The notes: generated by a model not told the origin, from the letters alone. Shown: positions 24,489-61,605, counted from the first letter of the stretch. The stretch is 64,000 nt of DNA from Candidatus Parcubacteria bacterium (GCA_963718875.1 OY970378.1:605373-669372), one strand, 5' to 3'. A program made the numbers and translations.

Positions 24489-24869
24489 GTGGACGAAAAA
24501 ACAATTGATGCAATATACCGGCTGATGGGTGAGGTTAGCGAAGCCAAGGAACAGGTAAAGACAACCAAGGACATGCTTAATGATGTGTTGGAGCAAAATG
24601 AAGAATACAAACAATTGCAGGAGGAGCTAAAAGAGCTAACTACCAAGCGGGGCGAGGCCAAAAAGCTGTTGCAAGCTGATAAAGATTATCAAAAAGTTAA
24701 TAGCGAGCTTGATGAGCTTAAATTTAAGTTAAAAGATTTGTATGAGATTCTTAGCCATCACCTAGTTACTTATTACAACGAAACACAGGCAACCGAAATA
24801 ACTGCTCCAAACGGCGAAGTCCATCAACTGGTTTTGAGCGCTAAAATAGGTCGGGCTGGCGACGCTTAA
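24489..24869 (+). CDS. Hypothetical coiled-coil protein (126 aa)
   Basis: K/E-rich heptad-like sequence. Confidence 0.4.
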   Translation: MDEKTIDAIYRLMGEVSEAKEQVKTTKDMLNDVLEQNEEYKQLQEELKELTTKRGEAKKLLQADKDYQKVNSELDELKFKLKDLYEILSHHLVTYYNETQATEITAPNGEVHQLVLSAKIGRAGDA

Positions 24870-25455
24870 GGCTGAGGTTGAGTTTGCTTAATCTGGCTGG
24901 ATTCATCGATGCTGCATCCACCCCAAAGCCCAAGATTTTTCTCGCGAGCTTGCCTCTCGTACTGGCGAAACTCGTCAAGTTTGGCGTAAGGAAATACTGT
25001 ATAAGCAAATCCATAACCGTCCTGGATAAGCTTGGCATTGAGAAGCGTGCCATCTGGCAAATAAACATAACGTAATAAACGCCTATATTTGTCGCGGTTG
25101 GCGTCTTCGGGGTCTGCCAATAAGCGAACTTGTTTTGATTCGGCTAAACTTTTAGTGTATTGGGCGCGACTTTCCCAAAACATTGTACCTCTTTGCGCGG
25201 ATCATGGGTCTCGGGCGTGTCCACGCCTATTAGACGAATGGTTTCGACTTTGCCGTCTATTCGAACGCTCAGCGTATCGCCATCTACTGCTCGGATGACT
25301 GTAGTAGTGCCAGGCATCGAAATGGTTTGTAGTTGGTCCAGAGCGTCCGGGTTTAAAACTAGGTATACCAGAGCTGCTAAAATGCTCAGGGCGGTGCTAA
25401 TTAATGCTCGGCGCTTTCGAGGACGTAGGCGCAAAGGTTTGTTTACTTCATCCAT
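24866..25455 (-). pseudogene. Thermonuclease (SNase-like), split by a -1 frameshift
   Basis: N-terminal part carries a TM region, VDGDTLSV and RLIGVDTPE. C-terminal part carries RLLRYVYLPDGTLLNAKLIQDGYGFAY...GLW. Frames join if one C is added to the CCC run (plus-strand GGG at 25162-25164): ...GKVAPQYTKSLAESKQV... Confidence 0.6.
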
Positions 25456-37202: not shown

Positions 37203-37560
37203 CAGACTTTTAAGTAATGTGAATGGATCTCTAAACAGCTCACGGTGGCCCTTCCTTGATTTGTAACTCTCTAATAATGTCGGAATCATCACAAGTACCA
37301 TCTCTATAAGTATCTAACATATGAGCTCTTAGCTGGACCTCTTGCACCTTCTAAGTATTTTATATCACCAAAAGTAATAATATATTAGTACTTTTGGTGA
37401 TATAAAATGGCTAGAGGATTAAGCCTCCAGGAGGGGTAGGAATACAGTTTTTAAAAAGATGCCACACAGACACTAACTAAAAGAAGCATTTGCGAGTTAG
37501 CTACGAACTAAATCGTAGATTGTTTCGCTTTAATGTAATAAACCAAGCGTTATATTAAAC
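37203..37560 (+). repeat. Copy 1 of a ~300-nt non-coding direct repeat (two conserved modules; carries an extra 52-nt perfect hairpin insert)
   Basis: Aligns with 42296-42597. Shared blocks: acttttaagtaat...tggatct(c/t)taa...aatg(t/c)cgg(-/g)aatcatca...atctcta(t/a)aagtatct(a/t)(a/c)cat and aca(g/a)tttttaaaaagatgccaca...taaaagaagcatttgcgagttagct...(a/g)atcgtag. Confidence 0.6.
37357..37408. repeat. Perfect 20-bp-stem hairpin (attttatatcaccaaaagta / tacttttggtgatataaaat, 12-nt loop) inserted in repeat copy 1 only
   Basis: Read directly. Absent from copy 2. Confidence 0.7.
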
Positions 37561-47322: not shown

Positions 47323-47563
47323 ACGTGGCTCCTTTCTGTTGTCGTCCCGAGGTATTCGAGGGATCTATGGTTTGTGCTTATCATAGATGCTTCGGCAAGC
47401 TCAGCATGACATAAAAAATCTTCGATTGATTACCGAAGACATTCAAAGTTAACAATCAAAATGTTGATGGTTACCTCGGTAGCAGATTAAGTCCTTTGAC
47501 TATCTTAGGACAGCTACTGTCTTGGGTGATCGCTAGTAATATTAGCCGACTGCAAGCCTAAAG

Positions 47564-54648: not shown

Positions 54649-55341
54649 TTACGGTTTCTCTTTGCTCAGGGTGGTGGTCCAGCCTACTTCGTTGATTTCT
54701 AGCGACCCATCAGGCAGGATTCGCCAGGAGACAACCTTGGATAGCCAGACAGTGGCGCTGGCCTGGGTAATTCGACCTTCGAATTCCTCTTCGACCTTCA
54801 TCTCCAGCCGATTGCCCTTGAGTTTGTAGCTGCCACGGGCAATGTGGCCTTCGATCGGGTCGAAGCCTTCATCGGAGTCCAACAGAACTTTCCGGCAGAG
54901 TCGCCAGCGATAACGTCCAAATCGCAGTTGCCGACGAAGTTTCCTGGTTCGAATGCGCACTAGGAGTGGCTTGATGAAGCGGTTTCCTGTTATTCGTGTC
55001 AACAGTGGCAGCTGGAGCTCGAGTATTCCCTGGCGTTTGACAGGGTTGTATTGACCTGCCCAGGTTTCATCTTCGGGGAATGTTACCTTGATCATGAGCC
55101 ACTCGCCAGATTGGTTGGGGATGAGGCGGATTACATGACAGGGGTAGAAAGCTTCAGTTACTTGTAGTCTGCCTCCAAGACGCATGGCGCCGGTTCTGAA
55201 AACAAACAGACTGTCATAAGCGCCTTCATCACCTTCTCCTTTGTTCAGGTTTTCTCGCAGACCTGCCTCGTCTAGCCCGGCAGTAATCCTGAGCCGCTCG
55301 GACTTGAATATCCGGTACATTTCTGACCTGTCCTTGATCAA
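54649..55341 (-). CDS. Hypothetical protein on a high-GC island (230 aa)
   Basis: ORF with GC visibly above its neighbours. Followed on its strand by the GC hairpin gcccccgac-N15-gtcgggggc (54611-54645). Confidence 0.4.
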   Translation of the reverse strand: MIKDRSEMYRIFKSERLRITAGLDEAGLRENLNKGEGDEGAYDSLFVFRTGAMRLGGRLQVTEAFYPCHVIRLIPNQSGEWLMIKVTFPEDETWAGQYNPVKRQGILELQLPLLTRITGNRFIKPLLVRIRTRKLRRQLRFGRYRWRLCRKVLLDSDEGFDPIEGHIARGSYKLKGNRLEMKVEEEFEGRITQASATVWLSKVVSWRILPDGSLEINEVGWTTTLSKEKP

Positions 55342-55413
55342 ACAACGAGTTTGGCTATTATATGACCTTGGTATCTTGGTGGCAACTCAAGACTGGACGC
55401 GCCATCTTGGATG

Positions 55414-56901
55414 TTAGCGTTTCAATACGCTGACTAGCCAGTGTGATAAATCGGTTTGGTAGAGCCATCCACTGAGCCCTAGCCCTGCCGTGGCTATAAC
55501 GGCCGCAACTCCAATGGCTAGTTGGCCGTTTGACATTTTGGGTTGTTTGGGGCCGACAAAAAAGTTGCGCCGGCTGGGTGGGACAAGGCTACAGAGTTCA
55601 TAGTATATGGCGGTCCAAAAACCAACATTGAAAACGAAACTCAGGTAGCTGCTAACGGTGGCAGAAACTATTAAAACACCCAACCATAATGCTGATACAG
55701 AAGCAAAGTTTGTGATAGAGAGCAGCAAGATCAGCGGTGACGTTATTACCAGGGTAATTAAAGCTGATTCTGTGCCCCAGATAACGATGTCACCGCTAAA
55801 GTGCCAATATAGCTTCCAGCACTCGCTAAAAGCCGTACTGGCTCGTCGGCTTGCAAGGGCGCCGGTGCGGCTAGCTAAAGCCCGGGCGGTAATGACGCCT
55901 ATTGCGAGAAACACTAATCCAATGTTGGTGATAGTTAGGGCTAAGGGTTGAACTACGCCTGTGCCGTCTGGCAGTAAGCCAATGAAATGATATGCAATTA
56001 TCTCAATTAGGAGCAATCCAGTAAACATACTGGCCGCAATAATGTCTAGGCTTATTAGCGACCAGAGTGAATTAACTCCCACCTGATTGGCAAAAGCGGT
56101 GGAGCTACTACGCTGGTCAATCTGCTTGACAATGGCGTAAATAAATTTCGCTTTTATAAAAGCCCTGGCTACAGCCAGTAGTATCATTGCGATCAACCCT
56201 ATACTCAGGGCAACAACGAGCGGCTGGACTGCGGCATTAACTAATGTTTTTGCTGTAGGGGGGAATATCAGGTTTCGAAACAAAGTTTGTTGCAAGTAAA
56301 ACCATAACAGACTGGTGCCCAGACTATAAGCTGCTATTTCTAGCCAAAAATGATGCATGGTTACGCGGAGAGCAGACTTAATCGGATGGTCAGCTTCTAA
56401 GCGCATTGATCTAATAGGTTGATTGTGGCTAGGGTGGTGGGATACTGGTTGGGGAGAAGGAGTGGATCTAGGCGGATATGCGAAGGTTTGAGGTGGTATT
56501 GGCTGCTGCTGCGGAAGTGGCGGCTGTGCGTGAGTTGACGGCTTCAGTACTTCGGTTTCACTAGGTTTTTTTACGGGTATGGCGTCGGTGTGTTTAGGTT
56601 TAGTAGATGGGTGTGGAGTTTTGAGATTTAGTGTGCGTGGTCCTGCGCTTTTGACTCGAGCAACTTCTTGCATTGCAGGCTGTTCAGGTTTTGAGGTACT
56701 GAATACGTTTACGGGCACGGGCAATTTTCTGAAATCCTCTTCACTTTTTTGGAGTACAGGAGTTGGTTGCGACGACAAACTTTTTGATTGTATTGTAATA
56801 GGCTCAACTTTGCGTTCGGAAACACGCTGACCGCAGTTTATACAATAATGCTGAGAATCAATTTCGATTATATCGTTGGAGCTACAGTTTGAGCACGTCA
56901 T
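55414..56901 (-). CDS. Membrane protein: N-terminal C4 zinc ribbon, Pro-rich linker, polytopic C-terminal region
   Basis: MTCSNCSSNDIIEIDSQHYCINCGQ, paralogous to the N-terminus at 12347-13696. About 6-7 TM helices. Confidence 0.5.
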   Translation of the reverse strand: MTCSNCSSNDIIEIDSQHYCINCGQRVSERKVEPITIQSKSLSSQPTPVLQKSEEDFRKLPVPVNVFSTSKPEQPAMQEVARVKSAGPRTLNLKTPHPSTKPKHTDAIPVKKPSETEVLKPSTHAQPPLPQQQPIPPQTFAYPPRSTPSPQPVSHHPSHNQPIRSMRLEADHPIKSALRVTMHHFWLEIAAYSLGTSLLWFYLQQTLFRNLIFPPTAKTLVNAAVQPLVVALSIGLIAMILLAVARAFIKAKFIYAIVKQIDQRSSSTAFANQVGVNSLWSLISLDIIAASMFTGLLLIEIIAYHFIGLLPDGTGVVQPLALTITNIGLVFLAIGVITARALASRTGALASRRASTAFSECWKLYWHFSGDIVIWGTESALITLVITSPLILLLSITNFASVSALWLGVLIVSATVSSYLSFVFNVGFWTAIYYELCSLVPPSRRNFFVGPKQPKMSNGQLAIGVAAVIATAGLGLSGWLYQTDLSHWLVSVLKR

Positions 56902-57165
56902 CTCATATTATTTAAGCACATTTTCGCTTTAAGCGTAAGCTTTTTATACCCACTATGTTTTTTTATTTTCTTTTACGCATGAGGTTTTTCCACGTAGCAT
57001 CCACAGAAAATTAGTGCATTTTCACAACAATCAGTGTATTGATGTTGTAGTGTTGTAGCTTTCAAGCCTAAAAAATGTTTATCAATAAAGCTAGTTGTTA
57101 TGTGTAGGCATGCTTTAAGGGGTCAACACATAGGGTCAACTCTTAACAATATCAATTTATTACTT

Positions 57166-57846
57166 TCAGTGTTTTTCACCTCTTGGTTTTTGTTGCGTTG
57201 ATTTTTTAGTTTTTTTATTCTTTTTGGGAGATTTTGCAAGTGTTTGAGGTGGTGCAATTACATCAGTATCTGGTTGGACTTCGGGAGTCGTCGGAATAGC
57301 TTCTTTTTCAGGTAAAGTGTCTTCATCTCGTGGCTCTATATTAGGATTGGTGCTATCCGTAGCTGGCAAAATCTGCTCAGGCTCAGACTCAGGGTGAGGG
57401 TCATGCTCCAGGCCGCTGTCAGGAAAAGTAGATGGATTGTATGAAACGTTTTTGGCCTCTAATAGTTTCGAAATGCGAAATGTGAATACGGCGCAAAGAA
57501 ACATCAAGACGCCAATAAGAGCTAATATTATTTGGTTCGTGTGGTTAGACGAGTTGTCGTCAAGTGTATGCTGAGAACCGTCGCCTGAAGTACTGATATC
57601 AAGGTTAGCCGGGAAGTCATCTCTTGATCCGGCTGGTTGTAGAGAATTCCCTGAAGATGGTTGATTAATGCCACCGCTGCGGGAGTCGGCTGACTGAAGG
57701 TTGCTTGGTGAGGCTGGTTGAAGTTCGTTTAGCGTGTTAGGATCGGAGCCGATAGTGCCGTTGCTGCTTGGCCCTAAAGAAGCTGATAAGACTGAAGCAG
57801 TAATTGTGCTCGTAGCTATGATAGATATAAATAGACGCTTAAGCAT
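57166..57846 (-). CDS. Ser/Pro-rich secreted/membrane-anchored hypothetical protein
   Basis: Signal peptide, low-complexity region, one TM (ILALIGVLMFLCAVFTF), Lys-rich tail. Confidence 0.4.
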   Translation of the reverse strand: MLKRLFISIIATSTITASVLSASLGPSSNGTIGSDPNTLNELQPASPSNLQSADSRSGGINQPSSGNSLQPAGSRDDFPANLDISTSGDGSQHTLDDNSSNHTNQIILALIGVLMFLCAVFTFRISKLLEAKNVSYNPSTFPDSGLEHDPHPESEPEQILPATDSTNPNIEPRDEDTLPEKEAIPTTPEVQPDTDVIAPPQTLAKSPKKNKKTKKSTQQKPRGEKH

Positions 57847-57939
57847 GACGGTATTATCCCATATGCAGGATGCTCATGGCAATCACGGCTTTTTATGTCG
57901 TCTTGTACAAAATGCCCTCTTGGTCGTACAATCGTACGT

Positions 57940-59244
57940 ATGCGAATTATTTCTAATGAATTACAAGATAACGTTGGTGAATCAGTTACACTTAAGGGCT
58001 GGCTTCACAAAAAACGCTCTATGGGAGCGTTGATGTTTATTGTATTGCGTGACCGTGGAGGCCTGGTTCAGATCGTAGTGAACGGCGAAGAAGAACAAGA
58101 AAAGCTTCGTGGTGCCCAGGTAGGTAGTGTTTTATCAGTAGATGGAATGGTTGTAAAAGAAGACCGAGCGCAAGGTGGGGTTGAAATTCACGATCCAAAA
58201 ATTACCGTAGAGGTGTTGGTTGAAGAACCACCATTAATTGAAATTGATAAGCCAATAGACCACACGCCCGAAAATTTGGATACTCTATTTGAGCACCGAG
58301 TTATAAATTTACGCAATGTTAACGAAACAGCAATTTTTAGGCTTCGCAGCGATGTAATTCGTCATATTCGTGAATTTCTTTATAAACAAGATTTTGTTGA
58401 AATTAATACCCCTAAAATTGTGGCGGGGGCGGCGGAAGGTGGTGCTGAGGTATTTAAACTGGATTATTTTGGGAAGAATGCAACATTGGCTCAAAGCCCT
58501 CAACTATACAAACAGATTATGGTAGGCGTGTTTGAGCGGGTTTTTGAAATTGCTCCGGCTTTTCGAGCGGAACTTAGCGCAACAACTCGCCATGTTTCCG
58601 AAGTAACTATGCTGGATATTGAAATGGGATTTATTGATGGTCACGATGATGTTTTGAGCTTGGTCCAGGACTTAACTTTTGCCGTTTTGACGCAGGTTTA
58701 TGAGAAAAGTCAGAAAGTCTTAGATGATCTTTCTGCTCCCCCGCTAATTATAAAGTCCGTTTTTCCTCGTTATACAATGAGCCAAATACACGCAATGTAT
58801 AGCGACGCTACAGGCAAAGATACCACCAAAGAGCTTGATTTGAATCCGGATGAAGAGAAATGGATTTGTCAGTATAGCAAAGAAAATGAAGGTTGCGAGT
58901 TGGTTTTTGCTACTAATTTGCCCAAGGCCAAGATGAAGTTTTACCATATGGCTAATGGTGACTCGACAGCTAGGTCGGCCGATCTGCTTTTTCGAGGGGT
59001 TGAAATCTCAACAGTTCCACAGCGCGAGCATCGTTATGATAAACTTCTCGAGCAGATGAAGACCAGTGGGATAGAGCCTACTGATCCTGGATTTAGTCAC
59101 TACTTATTAGCATTTCAGTACGGCTTGCCAGCTCATGGTGGGTGTGGGTTTGGAATTGACCGGTTTGTAGAAAAAATTATTGGTTTAAACAATATTAAAG
59201 AAGCAATTTTATTTCCAAGAGACCTTAATCGTTTGACACCTTAA
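57940..59244 (+). CDS. aspS: Aspartyl-tRNA synthetase, archaeal/eukaryal type (AsnRS not excluded)
   Basis: Class II motifs: FRAE (motif 2), GGCGFGIDR (motif 3), QSPQLYKQ. About 435 aa. Confidence 0.75.
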   Translation: MRIISNELQDNVGESVTLKGWLHKKRSMGALMFIVLRDRGGLVQIVVNGEEEQEKLRGAQVGSVLSVDGMVVKEDRAQGGVEIHDPKITVEVLVEEPPLIEIDKPIDHTPENLDTLFEHRVINLRNVNETAIFRLRSDVIRHIREFLYKQDFVEINTPKIVAGAAEGGAEVFKLDYFGKNATLAQSPQLYKQIMVGVFERVFEIAPAFRAELSATTRHVSEVTMLDIEMGFIDGHDDVLSLVQDLTFAVLTQVYEKSQKVLDDLSAPPLIIKSVFPRYTMSQIHAMYSDATGKDTTKELDLNPDEEKWICQYSKENEGCELVFATNLPKAKMKFYHMANGDSTARSADLLFRGVEISTVPQREHRYDKLLEQMKTSGIEPTDPGFSHYLLAFQYGLPAHGGCGFGIDRFVEKIIGLNNIKEAILFPRDLNRLTP

Positions 59245-60104
59245 ATTTGGATTCCAAAAATTGTTCGGGCGGCTATTCCTATGATCAGAGCTATACTAGC
59301 GGTGCCTATACTAAAAGCGGACATTTCCAAGAATGCTTTTTTGAATTGGCGGTTGAATACTACTGAGGTGTAGTAGGATGATCCGGCCACAATGAGTAAT
59401 ACTGTAATAAACATGGTTATAAGCCCACCATAAAGTGAAGGTATTAGTAAAAAAGGCGCAACTAGCAGTATTACGACAATAAGGTAGGCTATGCCGGTGT
59501 AAAATGCAGCTGCCTTAGGGTCTTTGCCGCGCTCGTGCCTGGCCTGTAAATAGGCTGATGAGGCCATAGAAAGACTTGCTGCGATGCCCAGGATAAAGCC
59601 AGCCAGGGTAACTGTGCTATTGCTCTGGAAGGCAAATGCAAAGCCTGTTAATGCCCCAGAGAGTTCAATTAAGCCGTCATTAAGACCCAGAACAATACTG
59701 CCGGTAAACTCTACCCTTTCCTCCTTGATCTGCTTAATCAGTTTTAGCTCTTGCTGCTCTTCTATTAGTAAAACTGTTTCAATGTCTTTTTTCTTGGGGT
59801 GGTCGGTTTCAAACAGCCATTCTCGAATGGACTCAGACATGGCATCTTCTTGCATCTCAAGTAGCCTCATAACGAACGTTAAGCCCAATATTCGACGCAA
59901 AACCACGTAAAATTTAATTAGCCATGGGCTTACAAGGTAGTTATTATGCCCGGACAGATCCGTCCAAAACCTAACATGCTCTTCTTCTAGCTTGGTTAGG
60001 TCAAACAATATTTGTCGAAATTGTTCGTTGGTTTCTCGTTCTGCTAAGGCTTGAAACACTAAAAAATTACGATACTCTTTGTAAGCGATTGCATCAAAAT
60101 TCAT
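59241..60104 (-). CDS. VIT1/CCC1-family membrane protein with N-terminal ferritin-like domain
   Basis: N-terminal EExxH-like helix pair. C-terminal 5-TM region with GLNDGLIELSGALTGF. Confidence 0.5.
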   Translation of the reverse strand: MNFDAIAYKEYRNFLVFQALAERETNEQFRQILFDLTKLEEEHVRFWTDLSGHNNYLVSPWLIKFYVVLRRILGLTFVMRLLEMQEDAMSESIREWLFETDHPKKKDIETVLLIEEQQELKLIKQIKEERVEFTGSIVLGLNDGLIELSGALTGFAFAFQSNSTVTLAGFILGIAASLSMASSAYLQARHERGKDPKAAAFYTGIAYLIVVILLVAPFLLIPSLYGGLITMFITVLLIVAGSSYYTSVVFNRQFKKAFLEMSAFSIGTASIALIIGIAARTIFGIQI

Positions 60105-60218
60105 TAATGTACTATTTCATATCTGGGTAATTTGGTCCACCTGTGATCAACCAAAATCCAGTCCCCATTAACTAAAGTTGCGTGATGGATTTGCCTGTAT
60201 AAATTTTTGCATTATTGC

Positions 60219-60986
60219 TTACCTCAGACTAAAGCGCTTAGTGCGCTGCTCCCTAAATTGCTTCCGATAACCAATATCTGCTGCGTGATAGCCATTGCCA
60301 TATATTACAGCCCAGACAGCGTGCTCTTCAAAATAAAACCAAATCTGTTTGTGCTTACTAACTTTTACGTTACCTCGCAGGGCGGCTATGGCCAGCCATT
60401 GTGACTTCTCCTCAAGTAGAAATAATCTAATTGGGTCTTTGCCAGCAATTGGTGAATTTATCTCGATAACGCAAGTGAAGTTATCGTCTTCTTCATCATC
60501 ATCATAGACTTCAAAGCTTTCAGGTGTATCGAGCATGCCAGTTGAGTAGTCGAGCTCTAATTTAACCCCAAGTGCGTTCCTATGTTTGGCAGTTAGTACT
60601 GTTGTGTAATTGGTGTGGGTGGCGATTAGTCTTTTATCTCGTTTTTCATCAGCTGGAGTATGCACTGGCTGGCCTTTATCTTGTTGCTTTTTAGTTTCGA
60701 TTTTTAGGTTCTTGACATGCTTACCGATAAAATCTTGAGCATTTTTAAATGCCGCTTGATAGCTAGATTCAACTTGTTTTTCGTTATCTGTTTTATCGCG
60801 TATATATGCCGCTTTTGCAAACTTGGGCTGTGGGTCACGACGAATCAACCTGAAGACTGCAACTGTAAGACTGTGTAGGATAACGATTGGTAAGACTATG
60901 ATAACGCAGGCCAGCATGATTGGCACAAACAGAATTAGAAATATTCCAGTTCCGATGCCTTCGATAAGTTTCTTAAGTATATTCAT
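60219..60986 (-). CDS. Hypothetical membrane protein (255 aa)
   Basis: ORF with one N-terminal TM. Confidence 0.35.
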   Translation of the reverse strand: MNILKKLIEGIGTGIFLILFVPIMLACVIIVLPIVILHSLTVAVFRLIRRDPQPKFAKAAYIRDKTDNEKQVESSYQAAFKNAQDFIGKHVKNLKIETKKQQDKGQPVHTPADEKRDKRLIATHTNYTTVLTAKHRNALGVKLELDYSTGMLDTPESFEVYDDDEEDDNFTCVIEINSPIAGKDPIRLFLLEEKSQWLAIAALRGNVKVSKHKQIWFYFEEHAVWAVIYGNGYHAADIGYRKQFREQRTKRFSLR

Positions 60987-61121: not shown

Positions 61122-61196
61122 TGGCAGGGGTACGAGGAGTCGAACCTCAATCTACGGTTTTGGAGACCGTCGTAATGGCCGTTATACCATACCCCT
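61122..61196 (-). tRNA. tRNA-Trp (anticodon CCA)
   Basis: Reverse complement reads AGGGGTA...ACGGT-CTCCAAA-ACCGT...GGTTCGACTCC...TACCCCT-G-CCA. Confidence 0.75.
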
Positions 61197-61247
61197 TCGC
61201 AAGTTTCATTTTGACAAGTTACAGTTTTTAAAATTGAAACCGTTCGA

Positions 61248-61313
61248 TGTCATCCTGAACTTGTTTCAGGATCCACGTCGGTTAGTGGATCCCGGATCAA
61301 GCCCGGGATGACA
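61248..61313. other. Perfect four-way-junction (cloverleaf-like) element: closing stem tgtcat/atgaca enclosing three perfect hairpins (6, 6 and 5 bp)
   Basis: Read directly: tgtcat|cctgaa-cttgt-ttcagg|atccac-gtcggtta-gtggat|cccgg-atcaagc-ccggg|atgaca. No unpaired junction nucleotides. Arm and loop sizes are not canonical tRNA. Confidence 0.6.
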
Positions 61314-61417
61314 GAGAGTATTTTGAATACCTCAATATAAGTTACAAGTATCAATTGTACTTATACGCAAGTAATTATCCAATAGCTTCATAGCCTTATT
61401 GAAAATTGAAACTTAAC

Positions 61418-61431
61418 CCGTCAGCTGACGG
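61418..61431 (-). terminator. Palindrome ccgtcag/ctgacgg just downstream of the rpmG stop
   Basis: 7+7 perfect palindrome. Weak U-tract on the coding strand. Confidence 0.35.
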
Positions 61432-61443
61432 AAATAAAATTTG

Positions 61444-61605
61444 TTACTTGCTTTCGCGATGGGCTAGGACTTTGCTCTCGTGTTTGCAAAATTTTTGTAA
61501 CACTAATCGGTCTGTTGTGTTCTTGGGGTTTTTATTGGTTGTGTAGTTGCGTTGATGGCAACTTTCACACTCAAGGGCTATGAATGGACGGTTTCGTTTA
61601 GGCAT
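61444..61605 (-). CDS. rpmG: Ribosomal protein L33 (53 aa, absent from the ORF track because under 60 codons)
   Basis: Manual translation: MPKRNRPFIALECESCHQRNYTTNKNPKNTTDRLVLQKFCKHESKVLAHRESK, the L33 C4 zinc-ribbon pattern. GAAGGAG RBS 7 nt upstream, inside the 3' end of the pspC-like gene. Confidence 0.8.
   Translation of the reverse strand: MPKRNRPFIALECESCHQRNYTTNKNPKNTTDRLVLQKFCKHESKVLAHRESK

Follow-up and report, generated by a model that had tools for sequence, protein, structure and literature searches.

What kind of element lies in the spacer between rpmG and the tRNA-Trp gene of a Saccharimonadia genome (candidate phyla radiation), where a 66-nt segment can be paired, with no base left over at the junction, as a four-way cloverleaf? 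The locus belongs to a 64,000-nucleotide (64-kb) stretch of DNA, here called the window, which comes from a source genome of ~1.19 Mb. A first-pass annotation of the spacer had offered several readings of the cloverleaf, among them the footprint of a miniature mobile element, a degenerate tRNA or tmRNA, a processing structure of the rpmG-tRNA-Trp transcript, and a cruciform recombination site. The analysis described here indicates that the 66-nt element is very probably a head-head heterodimer of CGTC-tagged REPs of family 2, an element of a kind already described but from a host lineage new for it.

Results

The cloverleaf is composed of two inverted 28-nt units

The spacer occupies 61197-61443 (247 nt), between rpmG (61444-61605, minus strand) and the tRNA-Trp gene (61122-61196, minus strand). 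Within it, positions 61248-61313 read TGTCAT CCTGAA CTTGT TTCAGG ATCCAC GTCGGTTA GTGGAT CCCGG ATCAAGC CCGGG ATGACA, and can pair as a 6-bp closing stem (TGTCAT/ATGACA) that encloses three perfect hairpins (CCTGAA/TTCAGG, ATCCAC/GTGGAT, and CCCGG/CCGGG, the third with a 7-nt loop), with zero junction bases. The coordinates of the element, the stems of the cloverleaf, the two GGATCC sites, and the positions of a flanking 11-mer are all as the first-pass annotation gave them, and the smaller palindromes that it described after the cloverleaf are present. The GGATCC sites begin at 61269 and 61287, and the 10 such sites in the window equal the chance expectation. The 66-mer is the strongest inverted repeat of the window, and on both strands its folding energy has a z-score of about -7 against shuffled sequences, and that of the whole spacer is -7.9. 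Next in strength among the inverted repeats is an AT-rich palindrome at 37350-37415, with 33-nt arms, 88% complementarity, and zero spacer, whose sequence is unrelated to REPs.

The cloverleaf is not the minimum-energy fold of this sequence. As RNA, a single long imperfect hairpin is predicted at -37.9/-38.4 kcal/mol versus -28.1/-27.3 for the cloverleaf, an advantage of ~10 kcal/mol, and two separate 8-bp hairpins are predicted at about -21 kcal/mol; with DNA parameters, the long hairpin is at -17 to -18 and the cloverleaf at -14. The architecture that best describes the sequence is instead that of two inverted 28-nt units separated by a 10-nt spacer, each unit consisting of an outward-facing TGTC tag, an 8-bp stem that begins with AT, a 5-nt loop, and a CCA tail. 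Unit A (61248-61275, plus strand) has the perfectly paired stem ATCCTGAA/TTCAGGAT around the loop CTTGT, and unit B (61286-61313, minus strand) has the stem ATCCCGGG/TCCGGGAT, with seven Watson-Crick pairs and one G.T, around the loop CTTGA; the spacer CGTCGGTTAG (61276-61285) separates the two CCA tails. Each arm of the cloverleaf's closing stem is thereby one tag together with the two stem bases next to it, and each arm of its central hairpin ATCCAC/GTGGAT runs from the final two stem bases of a unit through the CCA tail to one base of the spacer. Since these are inverted copies of a sequence that is itself palindromic, three pairings are possible, as two small hairpins, as the cloverleaf, and as one long hairpin, and the junction is perfect because the spacer is merely 10 nt long. 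The cloverleaf is therefore a geometric consequence of inverted palindromic units and not a designed junction.

The differences between the two halves of the dimer bear on which of these pairings has been kept. The 29-nt arms of the long palindrome differ at 6 positions, 4 of which make up two compensatory pairs, T:A to C:G and A:T to G:C, located in the small side hairpins, while of the remainder one gives a G.U pair and one falls in a loop; the compensatory differences in the side hairpins indicate that it is the small hairpins that have been preserved and not the long one. The centre of the dimer has 10-nt inverted arms (9/10 complementary) around an asymmetric 8-nt spacer. At its outer ends the element is joined to its surroundings as ...TTCGA-TGTC at 61248 and GACA-GAGAG at 61313, with no abutting duplication. 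A small ORF across the element (61250-61354, 34 aa, TTG start) lacks a ribosome-binding site, and was rejected as a typical spurious REP translation.

Units of the same kind occur in other phyla and in viral contigs

In a sensitive blastn search of plasmids, 45 records contained matches to the element's arms. Unit A agrees with copies in seven sphingomonad plasmids (Sphingobium, Novosphingobium, and Sphingomonas) at 27/27 positions (GTCATCCTGAACTTGTTTCAGGATCCA), one Novosphingobium replicon is matched at 13 places, and further plasmid matches belong to Sulfurovum, Treponema saccharophilum, Rhizobium, and Shinella. The copies that were inspected share a layout of two side hairpins, of the CCTGAA.. 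or CCCGG.. type, on either side of a centre that varies in length, with an outward GTCA(Y) tag before the first hairpin and its inverse after the second. Since the flanks are unrelated between copies, the element ends at its tags.

The exact core GTCATSCTGAACTTGWTTCAGSAT is present in 71 IMG/VR contigs (L069-L139) with GC contents from 28% to 71%, in which the paired units are arranged head-head (44 pairs), tail-tail (16), or head-tail (10). Spacer lengths of the head-head pairs form classes at about 4, 34-35, and 47-52 nt, a grouping suggestive of distinct dimer lineages. Loops of CTTGT and CTTGA dominate among 220 units from the viral contigs, and one of these contigs (L071) carries a compact dimer of both window subtypes that is 82% identical to the window dimer over 68 nt. 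A blastn search of a phage collection returned chance matches only. The pattern of the central stem, CAGGATCCAC-N6-10-GTGGATCCCG, had 0 matches in the viral contigs and 12 in a metagenome scan, all of them chance matches in unrelated GC-rich DNA. Other head-head dimers have spacers of anywhere between 0 and at least 52 nt, and for this reason the four-way junction is not a conserved structure in itself but a by-product of the inverted 28-nt units.

Conservation of the unit itself is apparent from covariation. A gap-free alignment of 16 units from four phyla shows two-sided changes at 5/8 stem pairs, with a covariation score of 0.575 as compared with 0.274 in shuffled alignments (0/500 shuffles reach the observed score), and sliding the pairing partners abolishes the signal. 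These units had been pre-selected for pairing, which makes the figure of 97% paired positions circular, and weight is given only to the two-sided changes, which support the 28-nt hairpin unit. The element is a dispersed, multi-copy, cross-phylum repeat, with near-identical units in four phyla and in viral contigs.

The units have the features of family 2 of the CGTC-tagged REPs

In the available text of Di Nocera, De Gregorio & Rocco (BMC Genomics 2013, PMC3733652), REPs are divided into GTAG- and CGTC-tagged superfamilies. The CGTC tag is there often TGTC or CCTC, the stems are 8 bp long in families 1-2 and 9 bp in families 3-4 and start with complementary A-T residues, the loops are 4 nt in family 1 and 5 nt in families 2-4, and the tail is CCA. 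CGTC units are described as forming mostly "HH" dimers with their tags outside, heterodimers predominating in CGTC-2, with spacers whose ends are often complementary (PMC3733652).

By these published descriptions, the tags of the window units, TGTC at 61248-61251 on the plus strand and at 61313-61310 on the minus strand, are an allowed variant of CGTC. Both stems are 8 bp and have A-T and T-A as their first two pairs, in agreement with CGTC-2; both loops, CTTGT and CTTGA, are 5 nt, in agreement with family 2 and not with the 4-nt loops of family 1; and CCA follows both units, as in the consensus. The tags point outward and the stems of the two units differ, which defines a head-head heterodimer. 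A scan with these rules found exactly two CGTC-2-type units in the window, while shuffled windows gave 0-2 weaker matches. An additional point of contact is provided by the supplement of PMC3733652, in the part available, which lists a Sulfurovum CGTC-2 unit in a ferredoxin-like gene, where it encodes RHSELVSGS; translation of the window unit gives CHPELVSGS, so that the two share the peptide motif xHxELVSGS, and the Sulfurovum plasmid match found by blastn sits in the gene of a 4Fe-4S protein. The family-2 assignment is accordingly one made on the rules stated in the text of PMC3733652 and on one supplementary peptide, and not on a nucleotide consensus.

The Saccharimonadia are not named as hosts of CGTC-2 REPs in the available portions of the 2013 paper (PMC3733652) or of the 2025 RepRanger survey. 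A literature search for "Saccharibacteria" together with REP gave no relevant report, and one for the literal sequence of the element gave nothing.

A second, decayed dimer and a monomer indicate movement within the clade

A covariance model, R1, was built from the REP unit and used to scan the window without filters. It recovered the two units at 61248-61313, which are within its seed (unit A, 44.7 bits, E=3e-10; unit B, 42.5 bits, E=1e-9), and in addition two units at 47340-47411, inside the rplJ leader, that make up a decayed head-head dimer of CGTC-2 type. Its units, 47340-47367 on the plus strand (11.7 bits, E=0.7) and 47384-47411 on the minus strand (20.1 bits, E=0.003), have TGTC tags and CTA tails, and are separated by a 16-nt spacer with complementary ends. 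No other copy of the 66-mer was found in the window by sequence at up to 3 mismatches.

The second dimer sits exactly between the T-run of the L10-leader (RF00557) terminator and the rplJ ribosome-binding site, flanked by ...TTTTTTA on one side and by ACAGAAAGG on the other, with no abutting duplication. It thus lies within the autoregulatory leader of an essential operon. In four relatives (L140, L142, L143, and L144), the ribosome-binding site follows the terminator after 3-8 nt, which represents an empty site without duplication, and in L141 the same place holds ~50 nt of filler with a REP-like remnant to which R1 gives no score. An intact REP monomer, TGTC-ATCCCCGA-CTCGA-TCGGGGAT, lies at another point of the L10 leader in L140 (5407-5434, minus strand), where R1, whose seed does not contain it, scores it at 31.9 bits (E=6e-7); this monomer is missing from the window and from L141. 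The R1 scan found no unit in the other ~235 kb of related DNA. The second dimer, the empty sites, and the L140 monomer together establish that REPs have inserted and decayed within this clade. They have done so at low density: 64 kb of the source genome holds two dimers, and the ~263 kb of DNA from related Saccharimonadia a single clear unit, which is much less than is typical of the classic genomes rich in REPs.

Setting of the dimer in the rpmG-tRNA-Trp spacer

The genes of the locus are all on the minus strand, in the order tRNA-Thr(tgt), tRNA-Tyr, tRNA-Thr(ggt), an ORF with a PspC domain, rpmG, the spacer, tRNA-Trp, and a 255-aa ORF that has no Pfam match. A terminator-like hairpin, CCGTCAGCTGACGG (61417-61432, minus strand), directly follows the rpmG stop codon, and the REP dimer has a promoter-like site, TGGATA-16-TACAAT (61354-61381, minus strand), on its upstream side. 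The distal part of the spacer, which includes the promoter-like site, aligns weakly (p ~0.01) with the entire 103-nt spacer of the closest relative (L054), which itself lacks any element resembling the 66-mer. From this alignment and the upstream position of the promoter-like site, the REP dimer may lie in a perhaps lengthened tRNA-Trp leader, if that site is used.

Relatives identified through L33 are all Saccharimonadia (TM7/Patescibacteria) assemblies, the best of them 91% identical in L33, and their rpmG-tRNA-Trp intervals range from 51 to 1831 nt. The element is absent by eye from all 19 short syntenic spacers, several of which, that of L054 included, appear by eye to contain a terminator-like hairpin and a promoter-like -10 site. 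Sequence comparison with 41 related rpmG loci gave no match to the window spacer, and R1, run on 42 such loci, detected no REP. Alignment with L054 and L001 in search of an empty site for the 61248 copy gave weak similarity (p ~0.01 for the distal part and 0.06 for the proximal part) and no boundaries, because the spacers of the closest relatives, at 91% identity in L33, are unalignable.

Several neighbouring features of these loci can be recorded here. In L056 a cellulase/dockerin gene is inside the rpmG-tRNA-Trp interval, and a PspC-like ORF, read by eye, is apparently within it in L015 and L016. In L054 and L055 a large serine recombinase directly follows tRNA-Trp, which suggests an integrated element. 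A common ~170-nt, strongly folding spacer sequence without Rfam match is found in L005 (2195-2371) and L007 (2660-2824), and may be an undescribed small RNA or leader. In the window, tRNA-Trp and secE/nusG, which are usually adjacent, are ~6.5 kb apart, and the intervening DNA (54649-60986) contains ORFs of 255, 226, 495, and 230 aa, all without Pfam match, as well as a VIT-family protein and, on the opposite strand, a class II aminoacyl-tRNA synthetase. Elsewhere in the window, at 24866-25455 on the minus strand, two overlapping ORFs (25144-25455 and 24866-25183) together make up a homologue of staphylococcal nuclease, and the split could reflect a frameshift, a sequencing error, or a pseudogene.

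The 11-mer AAAATTGAAAC occurs exactly twice in the window, at 61230-61240 and at 61402-61412, on the plus strand and in both cases outside the REP dimer. An exact direct repeat of at least 11 nt arises in ~1% of dinucleotide shuffles of the spacer and is found in 8 of 511 real 247-nt windows, which makes the repeat unusual and not compelling. The two copies are placed asymmetrically, 7 and 88 nt from the ends of the palindrome. A third, inverted near-copy of the motif, AAGTTTCATTTT (61201-61212), is located just upstream of tRNA-Trp, and in the predicted fold it can pair with either direct 11-mer so as to enclose the whole spacer. The 11-mers do not adjoin the element, and insertion of REP-type elements produces no target-site duplication. 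In our view the 11-mers represent an AT-rich motif of this locus, or a small duplication without connection to the REP dimer, and not a target-site duplication.

Discussion

Alternative explanations of the element

In the reading closest to that of the first-pass annotation, the inserted unit would be a larger miniature transposon of ~172 bp (61241-61412), of which the REP dimer is one part and AAAATTGAAAC the target-site duplication. That the 11-mer is found at two places only in 64 kb, and a repeat of its length in ~1% of shuffles, speaks for this, as does the fact that removal of the segment leaves a 75-nt spacer like those of relatives (51-105 nt), and small palindromes abound in the remainder of the segment. 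Such an insertion nevertheless appears improbable, given that its ends (CGTTCGATG versus CAATAAGGC) are not terminal inverted repeats, that the palindrome is at one end of it, and that matches elsewhere involve the 66-mer only; furthermore, the weak alignment of the distal 130 nt with the ancestral spacer of L054 makes this part look native, and the inverted near-copy at 61201-61212 suggests an AT-rich local motif instead of a duplication scar. The idea of a mobile-element footprint is hence upheld in that the 66-mer belongs to a dispersed CGTC-2 REP family, while the proposed ~160-nt limits and 11-bp duplication give way to limits at the TGTC...GACA tags (61248/61313), which are those seen in dozens of copies. 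A locus-specific structured RNA, in which the four-way junction would be a processing or recognition signal of the rpmG-tRNA-Trp transcript, for example by serving as a decoy or entry site for RNase P or RNase E, is quite improbable. The fold of the sense (minus) strand is indeed very stable, the non-Watson-Crick pair of unit B is G.U on the minus strand and A.C on the plus strand, the upstream promoter-like site may put the element inside the tRNA-Trp leader, and the three REP insertions seen in the clade are all in leaders of translation-apparatus genes. Against this, the element is absent from 19/19 short syntenic spacers, those of the closest relatives among them, and R1 finds a REP in 0/42 rpmG loci, while viral contigs and members of four phyla carry the same sequence at loci unrelated to this one; conservation does not extend to the geometry of the junction, with spacers of 0 to >50 nt, the cloverleaf is ~10 kcal/mol less stable in prediction than the long hairpin, and an Rfam search at E up to 10 places no known RNA family on the element. 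At the gathering score, Rfam searches of the window and 18 related loci returned only tRNAs, the L10 leader, and a cobalamin riboswitch in one relative.

Inverted REP pairs might also serve as recombination or integration targets, whether by forming cruciforms or by offering phages or elements of the IS110/IS1111 type a place to land. Neisseria dRS3, a CGTC-1 REP, serves filamentous prophages as an integration target, the centre of the window dimer resembles a recombinase core in its 10-nt arms and asymmetric 8-nt spacer, and the rpmG-tRNA-Trp-secE region is a hotspot of inserted genes in relatives, with a serine recombinase after tRNA-Trp. Yet nothing is integrated at or beside the element in the window, there is no recombinase or transposase among the 40 window ORFs scanned, and such a function, which we hold to be highly improbable here, would be compatible with the REP identification and not an alternative to it. 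As for a degenerate tRNA or tmRNA relic, the 66-nt size, the four arms, and the position among four tRNA genes would agree with one, but the probability is close to nil: ARAGORN makes no tRNA or tmRNA call at 61248-61313, and the Rfam tRNA model (E up to 10) is equally silent there, the sequence lacks the motifs of a T-loop or D-loop as well as a connector and a variable region, and the two REP units account fully for it. Other structural candidates were tried and rejected. There are no R'/R'' core sites and no intI for an integron attC site, the centre is asymmetric and the size wrong for a protelomerase or dif site, the unpaired conserved junction and loop nucleotides of hammerhead, twister-sister, and hairpin ribozymes are lacking along with any Rfam match, and no reverse transcriptase is nearby to suggest a retron.

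Origin and possible role of the dimer

As a CGTC-2 REP dimer, the element would have arrived by insertion of a non-autonomous palindromic element, perhaps, if GTAG REPs and the IS200/IS605 family are a guide, via a single-stranded hairpin intermediate that leaves the target unduplicated. Lying between two genes of the same direction, it is probably transcribed on the minus strand, in which case its RNA would fold into stable hairpins, within either a long leader of tRNA-Trp or a read-through tail of rpmG. REPs in general have been proposed to act as hairpin barriers to exonucleases or to read-through, and by that analogy the role of this dimer is likely to be at most such a passive one. The available literature names no transposase or RAYT for CGTC REPs, and a Pfam scan of 40 window ORFs found no transposase, recombinase, or Y1 transposase (RAYT).

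The three REP insertions seen in the clade are all in leaders of translation-apparatus genes, namely the putative leader of tRNA-Trp, that of rplJ (between attenuator and ribosome-binding site), and the L10 leader of L140. A bolder proposal is that CGTC-2 REPs are active residents of the Saccharimonadia with a preference for the 5' leaders of highly expressed translation genes; we consider this unlikely. The near-identity of units across the candidate phyla radiation, Alphaproteobacteria, Campylobacterota, Spirochaetota, and viral contigs would in that case point to a possible mobilizing or binding factor that is widely shared, and minimal REP-carrying genomes of ~1 Mb could, if the proposal is true, reveal this factor by gene co-occurrence.

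The identification extends CGTC-type REPs to a candidate-phyla-radiation lineage with ~1-Mb genomes, and the presence/absence differences among relatives show that REPs have moved in the Saccharimonadia. A tiny genome with few candidate genes, together with the presence of the units on viral contigs, could narrow the search for the mobilizer of CGTC REPs. The identification also removes a false lead, as the "perfect cloverleaf" is a catalogued type of repeat dimer and not a new RNA or a tRNA relic, and for annotation it implies that such dimers should be masked, as otherwise they could be miscalled as small ORFs (CHPELVSGS..., ...PGMT) or as novel structured RNAs. What is of residual interest is the constancy of CGTC-2 sequences across phyla and the means by which the units are mobilized.

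Comparison with known repeat systems

Classical MITEs such as Correia, ERIC, and RUP resemble the window dimer in being small, palindromic, dispersed, non-coding, and intergenic, but have IS-derived terminal inverted repeats and target-site duplications, whereas neither window copy has an abutting duplication. REPINs and BIMEs are doublets of GTAG REPs mobilized by RAYT/TnpA-REP. They too are inverted hairpins that can also fold as one long hairpin, and are non-autonomous and intergenic, with no target duplication and with proposed roles in transcript stabilization or termination; they differ in having GT[AG]G at the foot of the hairpin, where the window units have the TGTC tag, and in having a RAYT, none of which was found among the 40 window ORFs scanned against Pfam.

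Within the CGTC superfamily, the available text of PMC3733652 assigns Neisseria dRS3/NIME to CGTC-1 and Rickettsia RPE-4/RPE-6 to CGTC-4. Like the window units, these are short tagged hairpins, sometimes within genes, but they have other stems and loops (a 4-nt loop or a 9-bp stem), and the clustered mosaics of Neisseria and the in-frame gene insertions of Rickettsia are both unlike the window dimer. The correspondence is closest with the CGTC-2 REPs. The window dimer differs from them in its Saccharimonadia host, in its very low density of two dimers in 64 kb, and in a 10-nt spacer compared with the 20-100 nt of most dimers described in the available text of PMC3733652. It shares with them the TGTC tag, the stem, the loop, the CCA tail, the tags-outward pairing of two subtypes, and an intergenic position between genes of the same direction, and its units are up to 27/27 identical to sphingomonad copies.
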